Positions 15,161 through 63,647 of a DNA stretch of 64,000 bases are shown here, piece by piece (within the stretch, counting starts at the first letter, position 1; the number at the start of each line of letters is the position of its first letter). Where the stretch lies: contig CAZAMC010000003.1 in assembly GCA_964486505.1 (NCBI GenBank), positions 139,120 to 203,119 on the forward strand, given 5' to 3'. A program made the position numbers and the translations under genes. The stretch is from an uncultured Gammaproteobacteria bacterium (GTDB lineage: Bacteria > Patescibacteriota > Patescibacteriia > PEXW01). A model generated the notes under the pieces. The model searched no databases. It had not been told where the DNA came from and saw nothing but the letters and a program-made list of their open reading frames with translations.

Positions 15161-15892
15161 ATGAAACGAAAATCTATAAGTCTGTCGGTACTCTCGCTTC
15201 TTGCGATGCTCTTCATTGCTCTACCGCAAGGTAGCTTTGCTGCATCCATAGATTCTGACCAGGATGATGTTAGCAACGCTCGTGATCCATTACCCTACGA
15301 CCACGACAACGATGGCATCGTTGATAGTCGTGATACGGATGATGATGACGATGGCATCCGTGATGCACTGGAGGCACTTACGGTACGTCTCGACCACGAT
15401 AACGATGGCATTAAAGACGTTACTGACACGGACGACGACAACGACGGCGACAAAGACAAGAGTGAGCGCCGAAAGCAGTTTGACCATGACAACGATGGTA
15501 CACGAGACCTACTCGACAGCGATGACGACAACGATGGGACTCGTGACACCAGTGAACGTACGCTCACACGTCGGTATGACCATGACAACGACGGCCTCCG
15601 TGACGATCGCGATGTTGACGATGATGAAGATGGGTTAGAAGACGTAGATGATCTCTACGACTTTGACCATGACAACGACGCAGTGCGTGATGATCGCGAT
15701 ACTGACGACGATGAAGATGGAATCGAAGATTCTGAAGACTCACATGACTGGGACCATGACAATGATGGGACAGTTGATGACGAAGACTCAGATGATGATT
15801 CCGACGGCATTAGTGATACAGAGGAGGAAGACGGAGAAGAGTGGGACTATGATAACGATGGCACAGCTGACGACGAGGAAACCTCTTCCTAA
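15161..15892 (+). CDS. Secreted highly acidic repeat protein (seven DxDNDGxxD calcium-loop-like / thrombospondin-type-3-like repeats)
   Basis: RBS GAGGAGG; signal peptide MKRKSISLSVLSLLAMLFIALPQGSFAAS; then DHDNDG(I/T/L)xD...D(T/S)DDD(N/E)DG repeated 7 times, with about 45% D/E content. The coding DNA here is visibly more AT-rich than its flanks. Confidence 0.7.
   Translation: MKRKSISLSVLSLLAMLFIALPQGSFAASIDSDQDDVSNARDPLPYDHDNDGIVDSRDTDDDDDGIRDALEALTVRLDHDNDGIKDVTDTDDDNDGDKDKSERRKQFDHDNDGTRDLLDSDDDNDGTRDTSERTLTRRYDHDNDGLRDDRDVDDDEDGLEDVDDLYDFDHDNDAVRDDRDTDDDEDGIEDSEDSHDWDHDNDGTVDDEDSDDDSDGISDTEEEDGEEWDYDNDGTADDEETSS
15290..15870 (+). repeat. In-frame tandem DNA repeats (~75-90 nt units) encoding the DHDNDG...DDDxDG modules
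   Basis: Recurring gaccatgacaacgatgg...gatgacgatggcat units visible directly in the sequence. Confidence 0.55.
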
Positions 15893-15906
15893 GGAAATAA
15901 ACAATT

Positions 15907-15933
15907 GGCAGCGCAAAGCTGCCTTTTGTTTTT
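15907..15933 (+). terminator. Rho-independent terminator
   Basis: GGCAGCGCAAAGCTGCC hairpin followed by TTTTGTTTTT. Confidence 0.55.
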
Positions 15934-16016
15934 CCTGCCAAGCAGAAAGCATGTGGAGACTAGCTTTGGGAGAAGAATCTATAATCGCAAAACTAGAAGC
16001 TGTTATGGTACTTAAG

Positions 16017-16048
16017 CAAAAAACAGGACCATAGTGCGTCCTGTATTT
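16017..16048 (-). terminator. Terminator ending the minus-strand tRNA operon
   Basis: CAGGAC...GTCCTG hairpin flanked by A and T tracts, immediately 3' of tRNA-Ala(GGC). Confidence 0.5.
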
Positions 16049-16124
16049 TGGTGGACCTCAGGGGACTCGAACCCCTTACCTCTTCCATGCCATGGAAGCG
16101 CTCTACCAGATGAGCTAGAGGCCC
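16049..16124 (-). tRNA. tRNA-Ala (anticodon GGC)
   Basis: Reverse complement is GGGCCTCTAGCTCATCTGGTAGAGCGCTTCCATGGCATGGAAG...TTCGAGTCCCCTGAGGTCCACCA: cloverleaf, G3:U70 Ala identity pair, anticodon loop AT-GGC-AT, encoded CCA. Confidence 0.9.
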
Positions 16125-16150
16125 ATATTTTGCCTAACACTAGCACTTAT

Positions 16151-16178
16151 TTTCAAAATGTTCCACGTGGAACATTCT
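16151..16178. promoter_or_regulatory. Conserved element with perfect 14-bp palindrome GTTCCACGTGGAAC (copy 1), upstream of tRNA-Ala(GGC)
   Basis: ttttcaaaatGTTCCACGTGGAACattc; 27 of 28 nt identical to copy 2. Confidence 0.4.
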
Positions 16179-16285
16179 CAATGCCGGGAACCACAACTTC
16201 AGCTAGGCATAGACTTTCGGTGCACGGAGCGCACGAGTCGCAATCACTTAGGGGCTCTTACTACCTAACAAAGAAACATTCTTCT

Positions 16286-16361
16286 TGGTGGACCAAAGGG
16301 GATTCGAACCCCTGACCTCTGCAATGCGAATGCAGCGCTCTACCAGCTGAGCTATTGGCCC
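16286..16361 (-). tRNA. tRNA-Ala (anticodon CGC)
   Basis: Reverse complement is GGGCCAATAGCTCAGCTGGTAGAGCGCTGCATTCGCATTGCAG...GGTTCGAATCCCCTTTGGTCCACCA: G3:U70, anticodon CGC. Confidence 0.9.
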
Positions 16362-16376
16362 ATGGATACTAGTGAT

Positions 16377-16405
16377 TTTCAAATTGTTCCACGTGGAACA
16401 TTCCT
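16377..16405. promoter_or_regulatory. Conserved palindromic element GTTCCACGTGGAAC (copy 2), upstream of tRNA-Ala(CGC)
   Basis: ttttcaaattGTTCCACGTGGAACattcc. Confidence 0.4.
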
Positions 16406-16630
16406 TTTCATTTTTGTTTCTCAACTGTGCCCCTAACGCAAATCCTACGAGGGGAGTACACATCTGTGTGTCTAAGTGACGGATTCTTTGCCGTACAACG
16501 CGAAGGCGATCTGCCCATAACTATTCGCCCCACACCTCCCTTTGAGGGTATTAAGACACTCGCTATTTTAAGGATGACAAGTCATTACTTTTAGATGGCC
16601 CGCCATGAACCCGTGCATAGCGAGCAGTTC

Positions 16631-16705
16631 ATGGTGCCCCCGGAGGGAATTGAACCCCCATCTCTCCCTTAGGACGGGATAGCTCTATCCTTTGAGCTAC
16701 AGGGG
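16631..16705 (-). tRNA. tRNA-Arg (anticodon CCT)
   Basis: Reverse complement is GCCCCTGTAGCTCAAAGGATAGAGCTATCCCGTCCTAAGGGAG...GGGGGTTCAATTCCCTCCGGGGGCACCA: 75 nt, U33-CCT-A37. Confidence 0.85.
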
Positions 16706-16719
16706 CTAATTCTCTAGTT

Positions 16720-16905
16720 TTAGCTATTATTTAGTGTCGCAAAATATATCCAGTTTGAAACCCTATCAATTACTGTGCTCGTTTTATCGAAGTAGGCTAC
16801 TATACCAAACAGGACAGCGATACCGATAATGAGCAATCCTAACGTGCGAAGGTCGCTCCGGATAAATTTGTTTGCCGCGTGCGGCGCTGGTGAGGGTGTG
16901 TACAT
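16720..16905 (-). CDS. Possible small membrane protein (61 aa)
   Basis: One hydrophobic helix (LGLLIIGIAVLFGIVAYF); no clear RBS. Confidence 0.3.
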   Translation of the reverse strand: MYTPSPAPHAANKFIRSDLRTLGLLIIGIAVLFGIVAYFDKTSTVIDRVSNWIYFATLNNS

Positions 16906-16948
16906 AATCCACGTGAGTGTACCGTAACCAATTCTTCACAGCAATTCC

Positions 16949-16977
16949 TTTGACCACATTTCTGTTCCTAACTACAA
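16949..16977 (+). promoter_or_regulatory. Sigma70-type promoter upstream of the bactofilin gene
   Basis: TTGACC (16949-16954), a 17-nt spacer, then TACAAT (16972-16977). Confidence 0.5.
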
Positions 16978-17007
16978 TACCCTACCTCAGACTTAAACGT
17001 ATACCCT

Positions 17008-17385
17008 ATGGCAATGTTTAAAGGTGACAACTCTTCCGGGCATGAAGTTGGAACGGTTATTGGTGCAGGAGTAAAAGTTGAAGGGAACTTCACGGGCGAA
17101 GGCAACGTGGTCGTTGATGGTCAGCTGCAGGGCTCGTTAAAAACAAAACACAATGTGCAGGTGGGCGCCGGCGCGCTGGTGAAAGCGAATGTTGAGGCCC
17201 ATGACATCCAGTTAGCCGGAGAACTTCATGGAAACGTGAAGGCCACGGGGAAACTCGTCCTCGCGCCCAGCGCAAAACTTACTGGCAACGTTGAGGTAGG
17301 CTCGCTCTCAATTGCCGAAGGCGCTAGCTTCAATGGCAAGTGCGCAATGTTGAGCAGCCAAAATTCTGTCGCCGCTGTGAAGTAG
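17008..17385 (+). CDS. Bactofilin (polymer-forming cytoskeletal protein, DUF583)
   Basis: GEGNVVVDGQLQGSLKTKHNVQVGAGALVKANVEAHDIQLAGELHGNVKATGKLVLAPSAKLTGNVEV is the beta-helical bactofilin repeat pattern. Confidence 0.8.
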   Translation: MAMFKGDNSSGHEVGTVIGAGVKVEGNFTGEGNVVVDGQLQGSLKTKHNVQVGAGALVKANVEAHDIQLAGELHGNVKATGKLVLAPSAKLTGNVEVGSLSIAEGASFNGKCAMLSSQNSVAAVK

Positions 17386-54924: not shown

Positions 54925-54999
54925 TGGTGGACCGTAGCGGATTTGAACCGCTGACCCCCGCATTGCAAATGCGGTGCTCTACCGCTGAGCTAACGGCCC
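54925..54999 (-). tRNA. tRNA-Ala (anticodon TGC)
   Basis: Reverse complement is GGGCCGTTAGCTCAGCGGTAGAGCACCGCATTTGCAATGCGGGGGTCAGCGGTTCAAATCCGCTACGGTCCACCA: G3:U70, anticodon TGC. Confidence 0.9.
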
Positions 55000-55275
55000 T
55001 TAGAGGGAATCAGTCGTTTCTTCCTGCGGCGTAACCGTAGGCTCGTTCGGATTGAACACCTTTTGCAAGCCTTTGCCAAGCCCACCGCTCATGAGCAGGA
55101 AGGCCAGGATGATAAGGAAAACGCCGACAAGCTTGTACATGAGACGCGTACCGCCATCACTGCCCAGGTGTTGCTCGGCCCACTCAATGCGGCCCAGGTT
55201 GTTCATGAGCCATTCCGACTTCCAGATGATGACGAAGCCAATGGCGATGACGATGATACCAACGAGGTATTTCAT
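55000..55275 (-). CDS. Small two-TM membrane protein (91 aa)
   Basis: Start chosen at MKYLVGIIVIAIGFVII; second TM at LVGVFLIILAFLLM. Confidence 0.4.
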   Translation of the reverse strand: MKYLVGIIVIAIGFVIIWKSEWLMNNLGRIEWAEQHLGSDGGTRLMYKLVGVFLIILAFLLMSGGLGKGLQKVFNPNEPTVTPQEETTDSL

Positions 55276-55419
55276 ACAGTTGATTCTACCACGAGGGGTC
55301 CCCGCAAAGTTGGCACGGAACAAAGTGAGCACGACTTTGCGGGGCAAAGCGAGGCTTCGTCCGTAGGACGGTGGGGGTCTGCGAACGCGGACACGCGGAA
55401 CTCGATGGACGAAACGAGC

Positions 55420-55496
55420 TGGTGGGCAACGTAGGAGTCGAACCTACGACCTTCTCGGTGTAAACGAGACGCTCTAACCAACTGAGCTAGTTGCCC
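55420..55496 (-). tRNA. tRNA-Val (anticodon TAC)
   Basis: Reverse complement is GGGCAACTAGCTCAGTTGGTTAGAGCGTCTCGTTTACACCGAGAAGGTCGTAGGTTCGACTCCTACGTTGCCCACCA: 77 nt. Confidence 0.9.
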
Positions 55497-55685
55497 AAAA
55501 TACTGCTGCCTTCGATGTAAACCCGCCTCGACTCGCGGCTTTTTCGACGCGAGGCGGGCGAGACGCTCTATCCGGGGCAGCGCCGGACGCTACGCACACT
55601 CGCGTCCGTCGGCGCTCTCCCGCCGTACGGCGGGATCGCTGCTGCCCGTTCCACCTTCGGTGAAACCCAACTGAGCTAGTTGCCC
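55497..55685 (-). pseudogene. Decayed tRNA-Val-derived pseudo-copy (5' acceptor/D-arm fragment + D-stem/anticodon-loop fragment with inserted hairpins, no T-arm)
   Basis: Minus strand reads GGGCAACTAGCTCAGTTGGGTT-(~95 nt)-ATAGAGCGTCTCG-CCCGCCTCGCGTCGAAAAAGCCGCGAGTCGAGGCGGG-TTTACAT..., directly abutting the intact tRNA-Val 5' end. Confidence 0.4.
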
Positions 55686-55807
55686 GCATCGGGAGTATAC
55701 TCGCACTTGGCCTGAAACCCTAGCATTTGTAGCACTTTTTTGGCTAGAGGTGTAGGGTAGGGGGTGCCCTTCAGCAAAAGTTCAGGTAGCCAGAACACCC
55801 TGGAAAC

Positions 55808-56485
55808 ATGCGCATTCTCCTCATTGAAGACGAGCACAAGATAGCCAACGCCCTGAAGAAAGGCTTGGAGCAGGAAGCCTATGCCGTGGACGTCCTCTAC
55901 GAAGGCAGGCAAGGGCTGGCCCGCGCACTCCGGGGGAACTACGACCTCCTTATCCTGGATCGCATGCTCCCTGGCATTTCAGATGGTTTGGTCATTGGCC
56001 AGGAAATTCGCAAAGCTGGACTCCACCAGCCCATCCTCGTCCTCACTGCTCGGGATGCAACCGCAGATCGCGTGCATGGTTTAGACAGCGGTGCTGATGA
56101 CTACCTGGTAAAGCCATTCTCTTTCGAAGAGCTCCTCGCGCGCGTCCGCGCCTTACTGCGACGTCCCAACCAAGTGATGAGCACGACGCTGCGGGTGGGC
56201 GACCTCGAACTGCACCCCGATACCTTCAAAGTTTCCCGAGCGGGGAAGACGATTGACCTCTCGAACAAGGAATTTGCGCTCCTGGAGTACCTCATGCGCA
56301 ATCCCAACCGCATTCTGACGAAAGATCAGATCATCCAGCACGTGTGGGACTTCGACGCCGACATCTTGCCGAACACGGTGGAAGCGTTCATCGCCAGCCT
56401 GCGGCAAAAAGTTGACCGGCCCTTCAACCCGCCGCTCATCCACACCGTGCGGGGCTTCGGCTACAAATTCACCACTACCCCATGA
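55808..56485 (+). CDS. OmpR-family response regulator
   Basis: Receiver domain (MRILLIEDE...LLILDRMLPG...DDYLVKPF) and winged-helix output domain (...LLEYLMRNPNRILTKDQIIQHVW...). Confidence 0.9.
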   Translation: MRILLIEDEHKIANALKKGLEQEAYAVDVLYEGRQGLARALRGNYDLLILDRMLPGISDGLVIGQEIRKAGLHQPILVLTARDATADRVHGLDSGADDYLVKPFSFEELLARVRALLRRPNQVMSTTLRVGDLELHPDTFKVSRAGKTIDLSNKEFALLEYLMRNPNRILTKDQIIQHVWDFDADILPNTVEAFIASLRQKVDRPFNPPLIHTVRGFGYKFTTTP

Positions 56486-57519
56486 GCTTCGTCCTTCAAC
56501 TACAGAAATTTTTCCGCGCCCCCGTCACCCGGCTCACGCTCTGGTACGTCCTCATCGTCATGGTGATTAGCGTTGGCTTTAGTGCCATCATCTACCGGCA
56601 AACGGCGGCGCAGCTTAAGGTAGACTTCATTCCACGTGGACGCGTGATGATGGACTTCGGTGACCCATTCACTGAACCAATCCGCACACGCGTTCAAGAA
56701 CTTTTCGAGCAGCAGTACGACCTCGCCACTGGCCACCTTCGCAATCAACTCATCATTATCAACCTCGTCGTGCTCGGCGCGGCGAGTTTAGCCAGCTACT
56801 TCCTAGCAAAGCGCACGCTCCGCCCAATTGAGGAGTCGCTGGAAGAGCAGCGACGCTTCACGGCCGACGCCTCGCACGAGCTGCGCACGCCGCTCACGGC
56901 CATGCGCTCGGAAATTGAAGTTGCACTGCGTAACGCAAATACAAAGCCCGGAGAGCACGTCGACATTCTCCGCAGTAATTTGGAAGAAATTCACCGCTTA
57001 GAACAGCTCTCCCGTGGCTTGCTCCGCTTAGCGCGCAGTGAAGTAGATGCGAAAGGTGTGGCCTGGGAGGTCACGCCGGTGAGTGCCATCGTTGACGATG
57101 CCGTGCGACAAGTGACGCCCCATGCGGAGAAAAAGCACATCACCCTCGACCGTGTAGACATTGGCGGTTCGTGGCGCGGGGACAAGCATAGCTTCGTGGA
57201 GCTCCTCGTCATCTTGCTCGACAACGCCATCAAGTACAGCGATGAGAAAACGACGGTGCGCGTCGCAGGGAACGCGAGCAGCCGACACGTGAGTCTACGC
57301 GTGCAAGATCACGGCATTGGCATGAAAGCGTCTGATATCCCCCACATCTTCGACCGCTTCTACCGCGCCGATTCCTCACGCACGAAGAACACTGTGGATG
57401 GCTACGGCTTGGGTCTGCCTATCGCCAAGCAAATTGTGGAGCGGTTCAACGGGAAAATCTCCGTAATGAGCACCATTGGCGAAGGTTCGACGTTCACAGT
57501 GACATTCCCGAGGGCGTAA
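56482..57519 (+). CDS. Sensor histidine kinase (two TM helices, short periplasmic loop)
   Basis: HisKA H-box ADASHELRTPLTAM and HATPase_c N/G boxes (LLDNAIKYS, DHGIGM, GYGLGL); 4-nt overlap with the regulator gene. Confidence 0.85.
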   Translation: MSFVLQLQKFFRAPVTRLTLWYVLIVMVISVGFSAIIYRQTAAQLKVDFIPRGRVMMDFGDPFTEPIRTRVQELFEQQYDLATGHLRNQLIIINLVVLGAASLASYFLAKRTLRPIEESLEEQRRFTADASHELRTPLTAMRSEIEVALRNANTKPGEHVDILRSNLEEIHRLEQLSRGLLRLARSEVDAKGVAWEVTPVSAIVDDAVRQVTPHAEKKHITLDRVDIGGSWRGDKHSFVELLVILLDNAIKYSDEKTTVRVAGNASSRHVSLRVQDHGIGMKASDIPHIFDRFYRADSSRTKNTVDGYGLGLPIAKQIVERFNGKISVMSTIGEGSTFTVTFPRA

Positions 57520-57692
57520 TGCTTCTGTCATTCTGAGTCCCGTCCTCGAACGGGACGAAGAATCTCATCAGCTTGAAAGCCTTGTGAGATCCTTCGCCCG
57601 CCAGTAGGCGTGCTCAGGATGACAAGGATTCTTTCAGCCTCCTTTCAGCCACCGAGCGTACGGTTGGCCTATTCACCCTTTTCTGGTCACCT

Positions 57693-59054
57693 ATGAACGC
57701 CCTTACCCGCGGGGTACGCAATGCCTTCCGTAACCCGCTCCGCACGCTCGCTGTCACCGCTATCCTGGGCATTAGTTTGGGGCTGGTTGTCGTCATGCTG
57801 GCGGCGCGCAGTGCCGTGACTGCCCGTATTACCGAGGTGAAAGAATCAATTGGCAACACGGTGACGGTTACGCCAGCTGGTGCCCGCGGGTTCATTGGCG
57901 GTGGTGAGCCGCTCACCCAAGCGAAGGTGGATGGGCTGGCGAGCATTGCAAACGTGACGAGTGTGGATGCGACCATTGATGCCATGCTCCGTGCCAATGA
58001 TGACACCTCATTGGAATCGGCTGTGGAAGCCGGCAGCCTAGGCGGCCGGCAGCAGCGGGTATTTGTTGGCAGTGATGAGCGTTCGGGCACCGTGCAGTCG
58101 GCACCGGATGGTGGAACATTCACGCCGCCCATTTTTGCCATTGGCACCAACAATCCATCATACGCTGGGGAAATGGTCGGCGCGTCGGTGAACATTTCGG
58201 ATGGCTCCGCGTTCGAAGCAGGCACCGATGCCAACGTGGCGATCATTGGCAAAACCTTAGCCGAAAAGAATAGCGTAAGCGTTGGGAAAACCTTCAAAGC
58301 GTATGACACGGATACCACCGTTGTGGGTATCTACGACGCCGGCAACCAGTTCGCTAACAATGCAGTGGTCTTCCCGCTCAAGACCTTGCAGAAGCTATCG
58401 GATCAAGTGGACGACGTGACCTCGGCAGTCGTCCACGTGAACTCGTCGGATAACCTGGCTAGTGTGACGAGCGCCGTGCAGGAGAACATGGGGGATACGG
58501 CCGACGTGAGCTCATCGGAAGAGTCGGTCAAAGCCGCCATCACGCCCCTGGAGAACATCCACAGCATTGCCACCACCAGCCTCATCGGTGCGCTCATTGC
58601 CGCCACAGTCATCTCCCTGCTGGCCATGGTCATGATCGTCCGCGAGCGCCGCAAGGAAATTGCCGTGCTCAAAGCCATTGGCGCCAGTGAGCCGACCATC
58701 ATAACGCAGTTCGTTTCGGAGTCGGTCATCCTGTCGTTGCTCGGCAGCGTCGTCGGCATTGTCCTCGGCTTCATCTTGAGCAACCCAATCTTGCGCGCCC
58801 TGCTCAACTCCAGCACGAGTACGACGGGTGCGCCGAGTGTCAGTGCTGGTGAAGGTCCAGGACGAGGCATCCGCGTGGCGATCGGCGGTTTTCGTGCCGT
58901 ACGTGGAGCAGTGCAGGATCTCACCGCGGTCGTGGACTGGCACCTGATTGTCTACGGCGTGCTGGCGGCCATTGTTGTCGCCATCGTTGGCGCGGCGTTC
59001 CCCGCCTGGCTTATTGGCAAAGTGCGGCCGGCTGAAGTTCTCCGGAGCGAATAA
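57693..59054 (+). CDS. ABC transporter permease, FtsX/MacB-like (one N-terminal TM, large extracytoplasmic domain, three C-terminal TMs)
   Basis: MacB_PCD-like topology and a C-terminal FtsX domain (...ERRKEIAVLKAIGASEPTIITQFVSESVILSLLGSVVGIVLG...). Confidence 0.8.
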   Translation: MNALTRGVRNAFRNPLRTLAVTAILGISLGLVVVMLAARSAVTARITEVKESIGNTVTVTPAGARGFIGGGEPLTQAKVDGLASIANVTSVDATIDAMLRANDDTSLESAVEAGSLGGRQQRVFVGSDERSGTVQSAPDGGTFTPPIFAIGTNNPSYAGEMVGASVNISDGSAFEAGTDANVAIIGKTLAEKNSVSVGKTFKAYDTDTTVVGIYDAGNQFANNAVVFPLKTLQKLSDQVDDVTSAVVHVNSSDNLASVTSAVQENMGDTADVSSSEESVKAAITPLENIHSIATTSLIGALIAATVISLLAMVMIVRERRKEIAVLKAIGASEPTIITQFVSESVILSLLGSVVGIVLGFILSNPILRALLNSSTSTTGAPSVSAGEGPGRGIRVAIGGFRAVRGAVQDLTAVVDWHLIVYGVLAAIVVAIVGAAFPAWLIGKVRPAEVLRSE

Positions 59055-59065
59055 TCCTTAACTCT

Positions 59066-59737
59066 ATGATTACTGTCCAAAAACTCTCAAAATCATTTAC
59101 CAGTGCGGGGAGCAAGGTGCACGCCCTCCGTGATGTAAGCTTCCAAGTAGAGCCCGGTCAGCTGGTTGCAGTCATTGGCAAGAGCGGCAGCGGCAAGAGC
59201 ACCTTGCTGGCGCTCCTCGGCGCACTCGATGCGCCAACCGACGGCGCCGTAATGGTCGGGCAAGATGATGTCACGCAATACCGTGGCCGCAAACTCCTGG
59301 CGTACCGCCGTGACACGATTGGCTTCGTCTTCCAGAACTACAACCTGGTGCCAAACCTTTCCGCACTCGAGAACGTCATGCTCCCCATGGAGTTTGCCGG
59401 AAAAGCCGCCAAGGAGCGCCACCGCCGCGCCACCCACCTCCTCAACCAAGTGGGTCTCACGGGCGACAAGCTCAAGCGCACCCCGGGCCGGCTCTCCGGC
59501 GGTGAGCAGCAGCGCGTGGCCATTGCCCGGGCGCTTGCCAACCAACCCAAACTCATCCTGGCCGATGAGCCAACCGGCAACCTGGACACGGCCACCAGCC
59601 AGCACATCGTGGAACTGCTGCGCTCGCTCGCGCGCTCCGAACAGACTACCATCATCACCGTCACCCACGATCCAGCCGTTGCCCAGCACGCCGACGTCAC
59701 CTACCAACTGCAGGATGGAAAACTCGTGAAAACGTAA
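59066..59737 (+). CDS. ABC transporter ATP-binding protein (MacB/LolD-like)
   Basis: Walker A GKSGSGKSTLL, signature LSGGEQQRVAIARAL, Walker B ILADEPTGNLD. Confidence 0.9.
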   Translation: MITVQKLSKSFTSAGSKVHALRDVSFQVEPGQLVAVIGKSGSGKSTLLALLGALDAPTDGAVMVGQDDVTQYRGRKLLAYRRDTIGFVFQNYNLVPNLSALENVMLPMEFAGKAAKERHRRATHLLNQVGLTGDKLKRTPGRLSGGEQQRVAIARALANQPKLILADEPTGNLDTATSQHIVELLRSLARSEQTTIITVTHDPAVAQHADVTYQLQDGKLVKT

Positions 59738-59753
59738 AACTGTTCAAGCACTA

Positions 59754-59777
59754 AGCCGGTGGTTAGCCCGGCTTTTT
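59754..59777 (+). terminator. Rho-independent terminator
   Basis: AGCCGG / CCGGCT stem followed by TTTTT. Confidence 0.5.
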
Positions 59778-59831
59778 GCTATATGAAAAGCCCGGCTTGG
59801 AAAGTCGGACTTAACGTACTCAAGAAATGTG

Positions 59832-60062
59832 CTACTTCACGATTACGCCGCGATCCCGGAGAAGAGCCTCCAATTTGCGGATGTACTTTGCGGTTGTCAG
59901 GTAGAACAACAAGAGCACTGCACCTTCAAACCACATATGCTCAAAAGCGGCTTTCCAGTTAGCCGGAGGGACTAATGCTTGGTATGCATATGAACCAATA
60001 GCGAAACCAAGAAATGTGCCCAACGCAGCCCTTTTGTACCACCACATTTTGCTAAACCACAT
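59832..60062 (-). CDS. Possible small membrane protein (76 aa)
   Basis: Two hydrophobic helices; Trp-rich N-terminus; no RBS identified. Confidence 0.35.
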   Translation of the reverse strand: MWFSKMWWYKRAALGTFLGFAIGSYAYQALVPPANWKAAFEHMWFEGAVLLLFYLTTAKYIRKLEALLRDRGVIVK

Positions 60063-60215
60063 GTTGTCTCCTTGCCCACAGAGTTTTGTTTTCTTTACTG
60101 GGTGTACAACGCTAAGCCAGCCATGTCAAGCAAGGTCGCATCTATATTCCACCACTCCCCATCAACGTTGGTATCGTCCCGCTCACACCTAGTAAAATCT
60201 GGGTATACTACGAAC

Positions 60216-60842
60216 ATGCCGAATCATGAGGTGGAAAAACCGAACGAGCATACCACTGGCTTGTTATGCCTCATGAGCATGCTGGGCTTGTATATCGTGC
60301 TCATCCTCCTGCTGGATGGCAGCCGTGTGAGCCGGAGCCTAATCTCGGCCGCTCTTGTCCTCACAGCAGCGGGCTGGGGGCTGCTCAATGCTCGACGAAG
60401 TGAATTTTTGCTCCAAGCACTCGGAGCAAAACCGCGCTGGCGGGCAACTATTGTGTTCACCATTATCACGTTCGTCCTCGTCCGGCTGGCAGGTTACGGG
60501 TTCGCCGCTGCATTCCCTGCTCAGGCGATTTCCCTGCGGCATGACGTAGTGTCGTGGCCGTTCCTGGCCTTCTACTTCCTAGTGAGCATCCCGCTGCAGG
60601 AATTCGTGTTCCGCGGGTACGCACTCACCGCACTGGAGCGCTGGACCAAAAACTGGGTTGCTCCCGTCATCATCAGCTCTGGCATCTACGCCTTCTTCCA
60701 CCTCCACTACGGCTGGAAGCTCGCCCTCGCCGTTTTCCCGCTGGGTTTGCTCTTCGGGTACATCAAACACCACACCCACTCGCTAGTGTACGCCACTATC
60801 ACGCACGCTATTGTCGCTTTGGTGTTCTACTACCTCATCTAA
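60216..60842 (+). CDS. CPBP family intramembrane metalloprotease (CAAX protease / Abi-like)
   Basis: Motif 1 QEFVFRGY (EExxxR-type), FxxxH (AFFHLHYG) and HxxxN/D-type (ITHAIVA). Start chosen at MPNHEVEK, 6 nt after TATACT, so likely leaderless. Confidence 0.75.
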   Translation: MPNHEVEKPNEHTTGLLCLMSMLGLYIVLILLLDGSRVSRSLISAALVLTAAGWGLLNARRSEFLLQALGAKPRWRATIVFTIITFVLVRLAGYGFAAAFPAQAISLRHDVVSWPFLAFYFLVSIPLQEFVFRGYALTALERWTKNWVAPVIISSGIYAFFHLHYGWKLALAVFPLGLLFGYIKHHTHSLVYATITHAIVALVFYYLI

Positions 60843-61375
60843 CCCGCCTTCGCCTGCAGCCGCTGCAGCCCTGCGCGGGCCTTTTCTAACTCCATGAGAA
60901 ACGATGGCACGTACTGCTCGGGGTGAGCCTGAATTTTTTGTACAAGCTCGTCCACTGGTACGGCCATAAATTCTTCCACTTCCTCATTCACCTGCGGAAT
61001 TTTATCACTCATGCCCACGAAAAGGTGTGAAAGCCGTCGGCGCAGCGAACCGTCTTCCCCCGGGAATTCGTTGAGGAAGGCTTCGACGAAGTGAAGGTCG
61101 CAGGTAAAACCCATTTCCTCTGCCATTTCCCGCTGGGCGCTCTCTTCGGGTTTCTCGCTGTGCACAATCCCGCCACATGCTGAAATATCCCACATACCGG
61201 GAAAGTGCTTCTTGGTCTTGGCGCGCTTCTGCGCCCACACTTCACCCTTGGGCGTAAAAATGAAGATGATGGCGTTGGGTGTAATGTGGTTGTCACGCTC
61301 GGCTTCTTCCCGCGTCACCGTACGCACGACATTGCCTTGCTCATCCATGACGTTGAGAACTTCGGTGTTGGACAT
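60839..61375 (-). CDS. NUDIX hydrolase (Idi-like subgroup)
   Basis: Nudix box GGIVHSEKPEESAQREMAEEMG; high-GC coding. Confidence 0.8.
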   Translation of the reverse strand: MSNTEVLNVMDEQGNVVRTVTREEAERDNHITPNAIIFIFTPKGEVWAQKRAKTKKHFPGMWDISACGGIVHSEKPEESAQREMAEEMGFTCDLHFVEAFLNEFPGEDGSLRRRLSHLFVGMSDKIPQVNEEVEEFMAVPVDELVQKIQAHPEQYVPSFLMELEKARAGLQRLQAKAG

Positions 61376-61392
61376 AATTTTTAAAGCTAACC

Positions 61393-61944
61393 TTAAATGA
61401 GTGTTTTAATTTTGCGAAACACTTCCAAAATATCTGGAACGAAAATCGAGGAAATGAAACGTTTTTTATCTTCCACGGAAATATTCAGTATCGTAGCAAT
61501 CGGCCATGCTTCGAAACCAGCTCCCTTGCCCTGTTCAACCTTTAATTTCTCAACTGGACCGTCATACTTATAGGCAAAGACTGCCCGTAAAACATTGTTG
61601 GTTCTGTTGGTAACTGAATCATAGGACTTATTCCTATGCGTCTTAATGTGCATCAATTTCTCTGACGAAACTTTAAGCCCCGTTTCTTCTTCAATTTCCT
61701 TAACTGCAGTAGTGACGTAATCATCGCCATTCTCTACGTGCCCACCAACTGTGGCATCGAGCAAGTCAGGAAAAGTGTCCTTATCTTTTGCCCGATGCTG
61801 AAAAATGATCTTGCCATCCGGGGTATAAAACCAAACATGAATCTCTTGATGCAAGAGCCCCTGAGCGTGCACATTCGCACGCGAATCTTCACCCAGGATA
61901 TTCCCATGTTCGTCTACAACATTGATATTGGGTTGGTCGGTCAT
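61393..61944 (-). CDS. NUDIX hydrolase paralog (low-GC)
   Basis: Nudix box GGHVENGDDYVTTAVKEIEEETG; N-terminus homologous to the neighbouring NUDIX (V.DE.GN...R...H..GLLH); coding DNA conspicuously AT-rich relative to flanks. Confidence 0.8.
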   Translation of the reverse strand: MTDQPNINVVDEHGNILGEDSRANVHAQGLLHQEIHVWFYTPDGKIIFQHRAKDKDTFPDLLDATVGGHVENGDDYVTTAVKEIEEETGLKVSSEKLMHIKTHRNKSYDSVTNRTNNVLRAVFAYKYDGPVEKLKVEQGKGAGFEAWPIATILNISVEDKKRFISSIFVPDILEVFRKIKTLI

Positions 61945-61956
61945 ATATAAATGGTC

Positions 61957-62031
61957 TGGTACCCCCGGCAGGAGTCGAACCTACATCTTGGGCTTAGAAG
62001 TCCCTTGCACTATCCGTTGTGCTACGGGGGC
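61957..62031 (-). tRNA. tRNA-Arg (anticodon TCT)
   Basis: Reverse complement is GCCCCCGTAGCACAACGGATAGTGCAAGGGACTTCTAAGCCCAAGATGTAGGTTCGACTCCTGCCGGGGGTACCA: cloverleaf with a weak anticodon stem (two non-canonical pairs), U33-TCT-A37. Confidence 0.8.
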
Positions 62032-62066
62032 GTAGCGAGAAACTGTACGAGCTTACTGGCGGAGCG

Positions 62067-63041
62067 TCAATCTTCGTCCTTCTTCTCTTTCTTCCCTCTC
62101 CTATTGTGGAAGGCTTTGTACACCTCACGCAGCTGCTGGTTGGTGACGTGCGTGTAGATCTGCGTGGTGGTGATACTCGCGTGGCCGAGCATGGATTGCA
62201 CGGATCGAATATCCGCGCCGTTCATCAATAAATCGGTGGCGTAGCTGTGGCGCAACGTGTGCGGCGTGATGCGCTTGGTAATCCCTGCGGCTTTGGCGTA
62301 GTGCTGCACGATGCGCTGAATAGACCGCGGCGTGAGGGGCTTGAAATTCTCGGCCGAGCGTTTCATAGCCCGGTCGTGACGCAAAAACATCCACTCCTCA
62401 TCATCACTGCGCTGCTTGAGGTACTCGCCCACCCAGTGCCGCGCGTTGTGGCTGAGGAATACCACACGCAGTTTGCTGCCTTTGCCACGCACGGTGAACT
62501 CATCTTTCTCTAGGTTCACCTGGTCCTTCTTCAATCCTGCCAGCTCCGACACGCGCAAACCGGTGGAGAAGAGCAGCTCCAGAATTGCCTTATCACGAAT
62601 CTGGACGAGGTTCGGTTGATCGGTTTTCATTGGCGCTTCCAAGAAGCGCTCCAAGTCCGCCCCTTCCATAAAACTCACCTGTCGTTCTTGTTGCTTGGCG
62701 AGCTCTACTTTCTCGGATGAGAGCGTCGTAACGTCCCGTTTGGCTAGGTACTTCAGGAAGGCGCGCAGGGCAATGAGGTGGTAGTTGCGCGTGCTCGCTT
62801 TGAGCAGCTCCTTCTGCGGGTTGACCAGGCGATTAAGGTACAAACGGTACTGCCGAACTTTCTCCGAAGTAATGTCTTTTGGATCCTGCAACTTGCCCCA
62901 CGCCAAGAACCGGCGGAGGTAAAAGTCGTAATTCTTCACCGTGAGCGGGGAAACGTTCTTCTCGATTTCCAAGTACTCCAAAAATTCGGTGAGGAGCTTG
63001 GAGAGTTGGGGAACAGCCATAGCGCGGATATTGTACGACAC
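62067..63041 (-). CDS. Tyrosine site-specific recombinase, XerC/XerD family
   Basis: N-terminal SAM-like domain (LTVKNYDFYLRRFLAWG) and catalytic R...HxxR...Y motifs (GLRVSEL, HTLRHSYATDLL, GHASITTTQIYTHV). Confidence 0.85.
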   Translation of the reverse strand: MSYNIRAMAVPQLSKLLTEFLEYLEIEKNVSPLTVKNYDFYLRRFLAWGKLQDPKDITSEKVRQYRLYLNRLVNPQKELLKASTRNYHLIALRAFLKYLAKRDVTTLSSEKVELAKQQERQVSFMEGADLERFLEAPMKTDQPNLVQIRDKAILELLFSTGLRVSELAGLKKDQVNLEKDEFTVRGKGSKLRVVFLSHNARHWVGEYLKQRSDDEEWMFLRHDRAMKRSAENFKPLTPRSIQRIVQHYAKAAGITKRITPHTLRHSYATDLLMNGADIRSVQSMLGHASITTTQIYTHVTNQQLREVYKAFHNRRGKKEKKDED

Positions 63042-63239
63042 TTTCCACTGACTGCCTAGCGGTTGGGAAAAGGCTCATTTGACGCTCTGCCCTGTACGCC
63101 GTACTCTGGAGGCTCAACGGTCAGTTTGTAGTTCTTTCGCCGGTTCCATTCCGGCCCGCTGATCAACGGTCTTGATCATGATTTCCTCCACGAAGCCCCC
63201 GGCTGCTACCCACAGCCGGGGTTATTCTTTTCATAAGCC

Positions 63240-63268: not shown

Positions 63269-63347
63269 CTTGGCGACTCAATTCTCTAAGGTACGGCAGC
63301 TTGGTTCGGGACTTTCCCCGCTCTCGGCTCCCGCGAAAGGTCACGCT

Positions 63348-63647
63348 ATGCTCGACAAGACTGCGAAGGATAGGATTATCAAGAAGTTCAAGACCCACGA
63401 AGGGGACACGGGCTCACCCGAGGTCCAAATTGCCATACTCTCCCACGAAATCGAGCAGCTCACCGAGCACTTGAAGACCCACAAGAAGGACTTCAGCTCC
63501 CGCCGTGGCCTGCTGAAAAAAGTTGGCCAACGCCGCCGACTCCTCGTGTACCTCCAGCGCGAAGACAACACCCGGTTTGAGGAGCTCACCAAAAAGTTGA
63601 AACTCAAAGCCCAGACGTACATCATTCCCACCGCTCCCGCTGAATAA
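63348..63647 (+). CDS. rpsO: 30S ribosomal protein S15
   Basis: [70 protein letters not shown] matches S15. The track ORF start at 63240 is a TTG inside the promoter. Confidence 0.9.

Follow-up and report, generated by a model that had tools for sequence, protein, structure and literature searches.

What kind of locus places an AT-rich gene and a tyrosine recombinase gene on either side of a single tRNA? The question is raised by tRNA-Arg(TCT) in the window, the 64,000-nucleotide (nt) stretch of Patescibacteria DNA analysed here (contig CAZAMC010000003.1, positions 139,120 to 203,119), where the recombinase gene precedes the tRNA and two Nudix genes, NUDIX-2 and NUDIX-1, and a putative CPBP-type protease gene follow it. 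A first-pass annotation, made from the sequence, had taken this arrangement for a possible island remnant, with a foreign gene left behind by tRNA-targeted integration. Comparison with related loci, which are numbered with an L prefix throughout, leads us to favour on balance a different reading, namely that rpsO, the recombinase gene (xer) and tRNA-Arg(TCT) form a conserved backbone, that a fast-changing accessory slot lies behind the tRNA and that the AT-rich Nudix gene has long belonged to that slot and is not part of an island made by an integrase.

The five features of the locus lie at the coordinates and on the strands first assigned to them, as confirmed by open reading frame (ORF) calls, ARAGORN and Pfam. 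The Xer-type tyrosine recombinase gene (62067-63041, minus strand) encodes a Phage_integrase domain (E 2.7e-45) and a SAM-like N-domain (Phage_int_SAM_1) and is, as had been noted, immediately 5' of the tRNA on the same strand; rpsO, encoding ribosomal protein S15 (63345-63647, plus strand; Pfam Ribosomal_S15, E 8.5e-34), is divergent from xer and is part of the conserved backbone. The tRNA-Arg(TCT) gene (61957-62031, minus strand; ARAGORN, Rfam tRNA 58.7 bits), in which the CCA is encoded, is of a type designated allele A and is identical to the copy in L006. NUDIX-2 (61393-61944, minus strand; PF00293, E 7e-12), an AT-rich gene for a YfcD/IDI-like Nudix-fold protein, begins with an ATG 12 nt past the CCA end of the tRNA, and NUDIX-1 (60839-61375, minus strand; PF00293, E 1e-17), encoding a canonical Nudix hydrolase and of native GC content, follows 17 nt after it. 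The gene for a putative CPBP/Rce1-like intramembrane protease (60216-60842, plus strand; Rce1-like PF02517, E 9.7e-16) is convergent with NUDIX-1 and overlaps its stop codon. The two Nudix proteins are paralogs, as first thought, and distant ones, with 28% identity over 90 amino acids (aa) of their N-terminal halves.

In NCBIfam the recombinase scores 250 bits against XerC, 244 against XerD and 231.6 against XerA_Arch; it falls below the NCBI equivalog cutoffs for XerC and XerD, and the XerA-type model (cutoff 220) is the only one passed. The integron-integrase model gives 131 bits against a cutoff of 265, and the phage integrase models also score far lower than those for Xer. Among PDB entries the best match is XerD (1a0p, 2e-40), with XerA (5hxy) also found, and phage Gp33 reaches 3.5e-11. 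The protein has the two-domain layout of a core-binding and a catalytic domain, and the catalytic R..K..HxxR..H..Y set is legible in the translation (GLRVSE, RGKGSK, HTLRH, LGH and IYTH). The GC content at third codon positions (GC3) of the gene, 0.738, is native.

A scan of one genome per species yielded 28 related xer loci, 24 of them with enough downstream sequence. The order rpsO/xer/tRNA-Arg(TCT) is kept in about 21 of these 24 Patescibacteria loci, over a range of xer identity from 96% to about 57%, with rpsO usually upstream. The recombinase gene lies 5' of the tRNA, and therefore outside anything inserted at the tRNA 3' end, and it is kept in relatives with or without the insert described below. 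No second xer-like or integrase gene was found within the 64-kb window, in agreement with the first-pass annotation. The Xer-type scores, the conserved synteny, the single xer of the window and the 5' position together argue that the recombinase is a predicted housekeeping Xer-type protein, presumed to act in chromosome-dimer resolution, and not an island integrase. A housekeeping Xer had been the reserve option at the outset, and the family and PDB matches and the synteny bear it out; integration at the tRNA by an integrase-family gene, the option first preferred, has against it the same matches and synteny, the position of the recombinase, its native GC3 (0.74) and the failure to find a repeat of the tRNA-Arg 3' end in the window.

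The annotated GTG start of xer falls inside GTGTCGTACAAT, a sequence that is invariant upstream of the gene. Because of this invariance, and because 317-aa versions occur in the 90% cluster of the recombinase, the true start is probably the ATG at 63020 (317 aa), on what would be a leaderless mRNA; a promoter-like stretch (63030-63058) comprises a conserved -10 box, TACAAT, at 63030-63035 and TAGGCA as the -35 element. Between xer and rpsO, just upstream of the rpsO promoter, there is a strong terminator-like hairpin (63197-63231, plus strand; CCCCGGCTG..CAGCCGGGG) followed by a T-run.

The DNA 3' of the tRNA is variable. In L007, L009 and L010 (Xer 81-86% identical) the locus is colinear with the window except for 55,500-61,956, which is absent from them and also from L029. 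A tRNA-Val gene lies 40-150 nt after tRNA-Arg(TCT) in L007-L010, and in more distant outgroups tRNA-Arg is followed directly by tRNA-His or tRNA-Val. Since tRNA-Val stands close behind tRNA-Arg in relatives, and another tRNA directly behind it in outgroups, 55,500-61,956 is best described as a derived 6.4-kb insertion in what would ancestrally have been a compact tRNA cluster, Arg-Val-Ala-His. Orthologs (75-93%) of its distal part, which encodes a two-component system and a MacB-type exporter, are present in L044 and L047 and absent from L007, L009 and L010.

The tRNA-proximal content differs among relatives whose Xer proteins are 91-96% identical (L044, L004/L046, L005, L006 and L047). Behind the tRNA the window has NUDIX-2, NUDIX-1 and CPBP; L044 (Xer 96%) has HigB, HigA, NUDIX-1 and Cyt-b5; L004 and L046 have NUDIX-1 and a CPBP-like gene (the L004 homolog is 33% identical); L006 has a GIY-YIG gene and then NUDIX-2, L037 HigBA and then NUDIX-2, L038 NUDIX-2, and L047 another Nudix gene followed by PAP2, ApbE and a reductase. 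The slot of L005 holds a 35-codon remnant of a third Nudix gene, NUDIX-3, that runs on, out of frame, into a piece of CPBP in inverted orientation. In L001 NUDIX-3, NUDIX-2 and NUDIX-1 stand in the same order behind tRNA-Leu(TAG), and its NUDIX-3 matches the L005 remnant. The spacers between the genes of the array are 3-46 nt. These arrangements fit best with an old Nudix array (NUDIX-3, -2, -1) subject to differential loss and to the gain of small genes, in which relatives would have lost different members or gained HigBA, a GIY-YIG nuclease, Cyt-b5 or PAP2/ApbE. The inspection of relatives proposed at the start thus gives a divided answer, in that the DNA 3' of the tRNA is indeed variable, or absent in some, and the rpsO/xer/tRNA backbone is conserved.

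At the L005 junction (L005:11080-11321) the 35 NUDIX-3 codons run into the middle of CPBP, in the opposite orientation to that of the window, and the contig ends there; the junction resembles the product of an inversion that broke both genes, or else of a chimeric assembly. With respect to xer, the tRNA-Val/tRNA-Ala block is turned around in L044 (19702-20156), L004 and L046, and has the ancestral orientation in the window (54925-55496) and in L007-L010. A tRNA-Ala 3' fragment with hairpin inserts is found at L044:19591-19700.

NUDIX-2 had been called strikingly low in GC, which holds (42.4%, the lowest of the 64 kb); the background is 56% and not the 58% first estimated. The window has a mean GC content of 0.563 (sd 0.034 in 550-bp windows), NUDIX-2 a GC content of 0.424 and a GC3 of 0.435. 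The windowed GC and codon-adaptation check asked for in the first-pass annotation singles the gene out: the five lowest-GC 550-bp windows of the 64 kb are all on NUDIX-2 (z about -4.2), the edges of the GC drop coincide with the gene borders, and its codon-adaptation-like index is the lowest among 46 ORFs. The recombinase, NUDIX-1 and CPBP genes are of ordinary composition. Within the insert GC deviates only at NUDIX-2 and at 59700-60250 (0.475), the remainder lying at 0.55-0.61.

This composition recurs across the NUDIX-2 family, which has more than 1000 Patescibacteria homologs about 60% identical over the full 183 aa. The family member is AT-richer than its host flanks in 13 of 14 loci (mean -6.4 points, slope 0.42, r 0.73), and in high-GC hosts it is low as well (0.44 vs 0.545 in L006, 0.435 vs 0.53 in L039, and likewise in L038), whereas NUDIX-1 orthologs (78-85%; L044, L004, L046 and L001) track host GC. 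NUDIX-2 stands behind tRNA-Arg(TCT) in four genomes, namely those of the window, L006, L037 and L038, and the synonymous divergence (dS) between the window copy and the other three (80-86% protein identity) ranges from at least 1.2 to saturation, comparable to a dS of 1.0-2.0 for Xer. The closest non-self match is 81% identical (5.8 billion proteins searched), and a metagenome scan with NUDIX-2 recovered only five loci. Because low GC is family-wide, dS is saturated and relatives carry the gene at the same tRNA site, the low GC of NUDIX-2 appears to be an old, gene-specific family trait and not the mark of a recent import, which speaks against a freshly acquired foreign gene.

Genes of the NUDIX-2 family lie just downstream of a tRNA (Arg-TCT, Ala-TGC, Ser-GCT or Leu-TAG) in about half of the loci examined (L034, L041, L001, L006, L037 and L038 are the tRNA-linked ones), which is far above the expectation for a random gene. 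A promoter-like site for the tRNA-Arg of the window, TTGACG-17-TACAGT (62042-62070, minus strand), has a -35 element that overlaps the xer stop codon, and the GATTGAC at this stop is kept in relatives. In a promoter scan this site was the sole candidate promoter for NUDIX-2 and NUDIX-1, and because of this and of the spacers of 12 and 17 nt transcription most likely continues into the two genes from the tRNA-Arg promoter, and tRNA processing would free them. A Nudix gene also starts 8-33 nt after a tRNA in L004, L005 and L034.

Several points weigh against a conserved backbone with an old resident gene. A GC3 near 0.4 in a genome near 0.7, with NUDIX-1 unlike NUDIX-2 in this respect, is left unexplained by simple vertical descent, and repeated allele import of NUDIX-2 is possible. 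The gene is patchy, being absent at the site in L044, L004, L046 and L047, which can be read as gain or as loss. The compared loci also come from metagenome-assembled contigs, of which about 10-20 kb per relative were compared.

Of the alternatives, the one that survives best, doubtful as we consider it, is that the turnover is of a homing type. Small free-standing GIY-YIG nucleases would cut tRNA genes and the NUDIX-2 5' end, and their genes would enter during repair along with a substitute for the target, the consequences being a broken old copy, tRNA allele swaps and co-converted neighbours; NUDIX-2 would be a neighbour or a target, belonging to a pool kept AT-rich and tRNA-linked. The window would then be a healed site, from which the nuclease gene has gone, with the spacer trimmed to 12 nt and a pseudo-tRNA-Val left behind. 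A profile built from five GIY-YIG ORFs detected six ORFs in about 570 kb, all within 35 nt of a same-strand tRNA, against a baseline of 7.4% of bases at no more than 300 nt from a tRNA; co-occurrence is inflated by the choice of loci around tRNAs, though the test was normalised. The genes are AT-rich like NUDIX-2 (6-15 GC points below their hosts) and encode proteins of 80-107 aa. Four of the six have a broken copy of a tRNA on one side and an intact copy of that tRNA on the other (Arg, Leu, Asn and Val), and three are next to NUDIX-2.

In L029 (361-812) the start of an 88-aa gene (Pfam E 2.7e-14) lies within the anticodon loop of a broken tRNA-Arg, of which the 5' part remains, and an intact tRNA-Arg comes after the gene. 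In L001 (4699-5132) the 5' part of a pseudo-tRNA-Leu with hairpins, the GIY-YIG gene and tRNA-Leu precede NUDIX-3, -2 and -1, and in L035 (7293-7660) the gene is placed between the 5' part of a pseudo-tRNA-Asn and tRNA-Asn. The order is reversed in L010 (11173-11600), with tRNA-Val first and the 3' part of a pseudo-tRNA-Val last. The remaining two are L034 (1-269), in which the gene precedes tRNA-Ala and NUDIX-2, and L006 (11008-11445), in which it follows tRNA-Arg and is fused to the first three codons of NUDIX-2, with NUDIX-2 itself next. A nuclease gene combined with a broken and an intact target, the mark of a GIY-YIG homing cassette, is therefore seen in L029, L001, L035 and L010 and not in the window, where the profile search found no GIY-YIG ORF.

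In genomes whose Xer proteins are 94-96% identical the tRNA-Arg alleles are about 25% divergent (window 61957-62031 compared with L004:11004-11078 and L044:10990-11064), the divergence beginning directly after the xer stop codon, and such allele differences would be expected from homing. In L038 the other allele is intact, and behind it stand the 20 nt with which the window-type allele ends. Three relatives (L007:11047-11263, L037:60-215 and L047:9990-10230) have a nested tRNA-Arg, in which a unit of 17 nt, an intact tRNA-Arg(TCT) and 16 nt interrupts an older, decayed tRNA-Arg(TCT) at anticodon position 35/36. The 17- and 16-nt flanks can pair (ccccRccWgcc / ggcaggcgggg), and the inner tRNA is identical in L037 and L047. 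More widely, same-allele tRNA fragments flank 17 of 81 tRNAs. A trailer, GCTCGTTTCG, is found after the CCA of different tRNAs in different genomes (window 55405-55416, L001:5133-5142 and L007:11264-11273), and a second, CTCGACTCGG, after tRNA-Arg or a displaced 3' fragment of it in L006, L037, L038, L044 and L047; these trailers may be processing or recombination signals.

The pseudo-tRNA-Val of the window (55505-55685, minus strand) marks where the 6.4-kb insertion ends on the side away from tRNA-Arg, and the intact tRNA-Val(TAC) gene (55420-55496, minus strand; ARAGORN) comes directly downstream of it. It retains positions 1-19 exactly, positions 21-32 and the anticodon loop, and is split in the D-loop and at the anticodon stem by GC-rich hairpins, namely tcccgccgtacggcggga, gcgccggacgc..gcgtccggcgc and cccgcctcgcg..cgcgagtcgaggcggg. 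The pseudo-tRNA-Val of L029 has the same inserts, and one stem there shows a compensatory change. Of 14 such hairpins in the related loci, 9 are no more than 300 nt away from a tRNA gene, where 7.4% would be expected. A genome-wide family resembling repetitive extragenic palindromes was considered for the CCCGCC..GGCGGG hairpins and rejected, there being only two copies in 64 kb, both in the pseudo-tRNA-Val. Rfam detects only tRNAs in the tRNA wrecks, and a group I intron or other known RNA was rejected for them.

Against homing as the explanation of the window stand the absence of a GIY-YIG gene from it, the saturated dS, which means that no recent transfer of NUDIX-2 into the window took place, and the nested units of L007, L037 and L047, which are without a nuclease gene. 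The 80-107-aa proteins consist of the catalytic domain, with no recognisable DNA-binding domain, and their cleavage specificity is putative. A broader proposal, which is tentative and which we would put somewhat higher, is that tRNA genes of this clade have been repeatedly overwritten by selfish cassettes, each a GIY-YIG gene with a replacement tRNA entering tRNA loops, and that hairpins accumulate in the wreck; the xer-linked tRNA-Arg(TCT) would be one target and the window a healed example, with 55505-55685 as its relic. If this is true, cassette traffic would explain the tRNA allele swaps between near-identical genomes, the hypervariable slot and, via co-conversion, the AT-richness and tRNA linkage of NUDIX-2. 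This GIY-YIG side lead is more novel than the finding on NUDIX-2 and the recombinase.

That NUDIX-2 by itself came recently, by whatever route, from a low-GC Patescibacterium through horizontal transfer, so that its low GC would reflect incomplete amelioration, is unlikely. A GC content of 42% fits typical low-GC Patescibacteria, in which the homologs of about 60% identity are abundant, the gene is absent at the site in the closest relative, L044, and horizontal gene transfer among Patescibacteria has been reported to be common (PMC12455944). The nearest copies, however, are separated from that of the window by saturated dS, the best of 5.8 billion proteins is no closer than 81%, and the copies occupy the same tRNA-Arg site and are equally low in GC in other high-GC hosts (L006, L038 and L039).

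The classical island remnant, a mobile element integrated at tRNA-Arg(TCT) by a tyrosine integrase with NUDIX-2 as surviving foreign cargo, is very unlikely, and for the window this reading is already largely refuted. Integrase crossovers fall in the anticodon loop or T-loop of a tRNA, and Williams is said to have distinguished sublocation classes of tRNA integration in 2002; displaced tRNA-Arg pieces in L007, L037, L047, L038 and L009 end in one or other of these loops. The compositional outlier NUDIX-2, the variable DNA directly 3' of the tRNA and a HigBA toxin-antitoxin at the same spot in L044 and L037 also speak for an island. Of the properties by which Islander defines one, the window shows tRNA-adjacent DNA that is absent from relatives (L007, L009, L010 and L029) or differs in its proximal genes (L044, L004, L046, L047, L005 and L006). 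A tyrosine integrase within the island would also be expected, but the only recombinase in the 64 kb is 5' of the tRNA, conserved with or without the insert, Xer-like and of native GC. A displaced fragment of the target tRNA should mark the far end, but no tRNA-Arg(TCT) 3' repeat or fragment was found elsewhere in the window (blastn-short with four alleles; repeat search of 54.8-63.3 kb and of the whole window), in which the sole match in the repeat search was the T-arm shared with tRNA-Val and the sole fragment is the pseudo-tRNA-Val beside its own intact gene; the direct repeat sought as a check on integration is thus missing. Most of the 6.4 kb is of native GC. In L038, L037 and L047 the NUDIX genes and a shared trailer, ctcgactcgg, lie beyond the displaced tRNA-Arg 3' fragment, which would place the NUDIX genes on the host side of that event. 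Phage or plasmid relatives of NUDIX-2 were not found, with no match in IMG/VR and at most 39% identity in phage and plasmid collections, and viral contigs contain neither the allele A nor the allele B version of the tRNA-Arg 3' end.

Insertion by an element exploiting the host Xer (IMEX-like), with a dif site next to xer as in XerS systems, is hardly credible: xer has variable DNA to either side (0.3-2 kb toward rpsO, and the slot after tRNA-Arg) and the XerA-like score suggests a single-recombinase Xer type, but no dif-like palindrome is conserved upstream of xer in seven aligned loci, the window has no GC-skew switch and no repeated dif-like sites flank the insert. An integron, suggested by the NCBI name 'tyrosine recombinase/integron integrase', was rejected, the integrase model being under its cutoff and the 3-46-nt spacers too short for attC sites. 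An anti-phage defence system was likewise rejected for lack of PADLOC support: PADLOC gave no match for CPBP, NUDIX-2 or Xer, a weak generic one for NUDIX-1 (PDC-S07, 5.8e-6) and matches to generic domains for the ABC and kinase genes. The defence or phage link once suggested for CPBP and NUDIX-2 accordingly finds no support in PADLOC or in the viral, phage and plasmid collections.

The distal part of the insertion encodes a response regulator (55808-56485, plus strand; Pfam Response_reg/Trans_reg_C), a histidine kinase (56482-57519, plus strand; HisKA/HATPase_c), a MacB/FtsX permease (57693-59054, plus strand; MacB_PCD/FtsX) and an ABC ATPase (59066-59737, plus strand; ABC_tran), all of native GC. 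To judge by family names, these genes and CPBP would probably form an envelope or antimicrobial-peptide response or resistance module. A 76-aa ORF called in the NCBI record (59832-60062, minus strand), a predicted small membrane protein without a family match in Pfam or NCBIfam, falls within the 47-48% GC stretch at 59700-60250. The second-lowest GC stretch of the window (15500-17200, 46-48%) surrounds tRNA Ala-GGC, Ala-CGC and Arg-CCT.

Both Nudix proteins contain a Nudix box, which in NUDIX-1 is an exact GX5EX7REUXEEXGU and in NUDIX-2 reads G-x5-D-x7-K-E-I-x-E-E-x-G-L, with E83, E86, E87 and G89 invariant in 38 relatives. The structural model of NUDIX-2 (predicted local distance difference test, pLDDT, 89.9) supports the fold and has YfcD (2fkb) and isopentenyl diphosphate (IPP) isomerase (1hx3) as top folds, and His26, His32 and His69 are invariant in the family. 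NUDIX-2 is not taken for an IPP isomerase because the catalytic Cys is absent, and this function was rejected for either protein on catalytic residues and on NCBIfam IDI scores of 52-71 bits against a cutoff of 127; NUDIX-2 is most likely a metal-dependent pyrophosphohydrolase. In the CPBP protein the motifs QEFVFR, YAFFH and HAIVA correspond to EExxxR, FxxxH and HxxxN of the family, the first Glu and the Asn being replaced.

The analysis corrects an attractive annotation, in which integrase, tRNA and low-GC gene turn out to be a conserved Xer and, on the reading favoured here, an old resident gene. In Patescibacteria, low GC is by itself an unreliable sign that a gene was transferred recently, given that one family is AT-rich in hosts of 35 to 56% GC, and in the very small genomes of this clade the DNA that follows tRNA-Arg(TCT) is a hot spot for gene turnover. 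If the GIY-YIG genes are homing elements, they would give uncultured bacteria with few classical mobile elements a means of exchanging genes and replacing tRNA alleles.

Compared with known systems, the recombinase resembles the Xer proteins of dimer resolution (XerD 1a0p, XerA 5hxy, XerH and XerS) in its two domains, full catalytic set, best matches, single copy in the window and vertical synteny. It differs from them in the tight linkage of xer to tRNA-Arg(TCT), whose promoter extends over the stop codon of xer, and to our knowledge such a linkage is not a described feature of Xer genes. NUDIX-2 matches E. coli YfcD (2fkb) and type-1 IPP isomerase (1hx3) in sequence (E 3.6e-11) and in fold (template modelling score, TM, 0.73-0.82). 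The three His positions that bind metal in IDI are retained, and the REUXEE core of the Nudix box is KEIEEE, with E-to-D and R-to-K changes from the canonical box. Unlike IDI, NUDIX-2 has Gly in place of the catalytic Cys67 and Asn-Asn in place of the Glu114/Glu116 motif (E. coli numbering).

With tRNA-integrated islands as defined by Islander (PMC4383910) the window shares lineage-specific DNA starting at the tRNA 3' end, and its relatives share displaced tRNA pieces from the anticodon loop or T-loop and accessory genes with a toxin-antitoxin at the site. It differs from such islands (PMC4383910) in that the variable DNA contains no integrase, the window has no displaced piece of tRNA-Arg, the upstream recombinase is conserved and the composition is mostly native. 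Group I introns have been described at 35/36 of Patescibacteria tRNAs (PMC13011429), the insertion site that the nested tRNA-Arg units also use. These units are unlike the introns (PMC13011429) in that the insert is 108-109 nt long with a whole tRNA inside, the outer tRNA has decayed, C and not U would stand at the end of the 5' exon, and there is no Rfam group I match.

Free-standing homing endonucleases such as T4 SegB are known from a tRNA cluster (PMC2988022, PMC13096335), and with these GIY-YIG enzymes the relatives share a gene in or against a tRNA, with a broken old and an intact new copy. In contrast to SegB, those of the relatives are in Patescibacteria chromosomes and not in phage or organelles, have the catalytic domain alone in 80-107 aa and are putative nucleases, with no such gene in the window. 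The GC-rich hairpins at the tRNA sites of the relatives recall the double-hairpin elements of Allomyces. For the atp6 gene of this fungus, Paquin and co-workers reportedly described in 1994 how a mitochondrial GIY-YIG ORF brings a replacement gene end with it.

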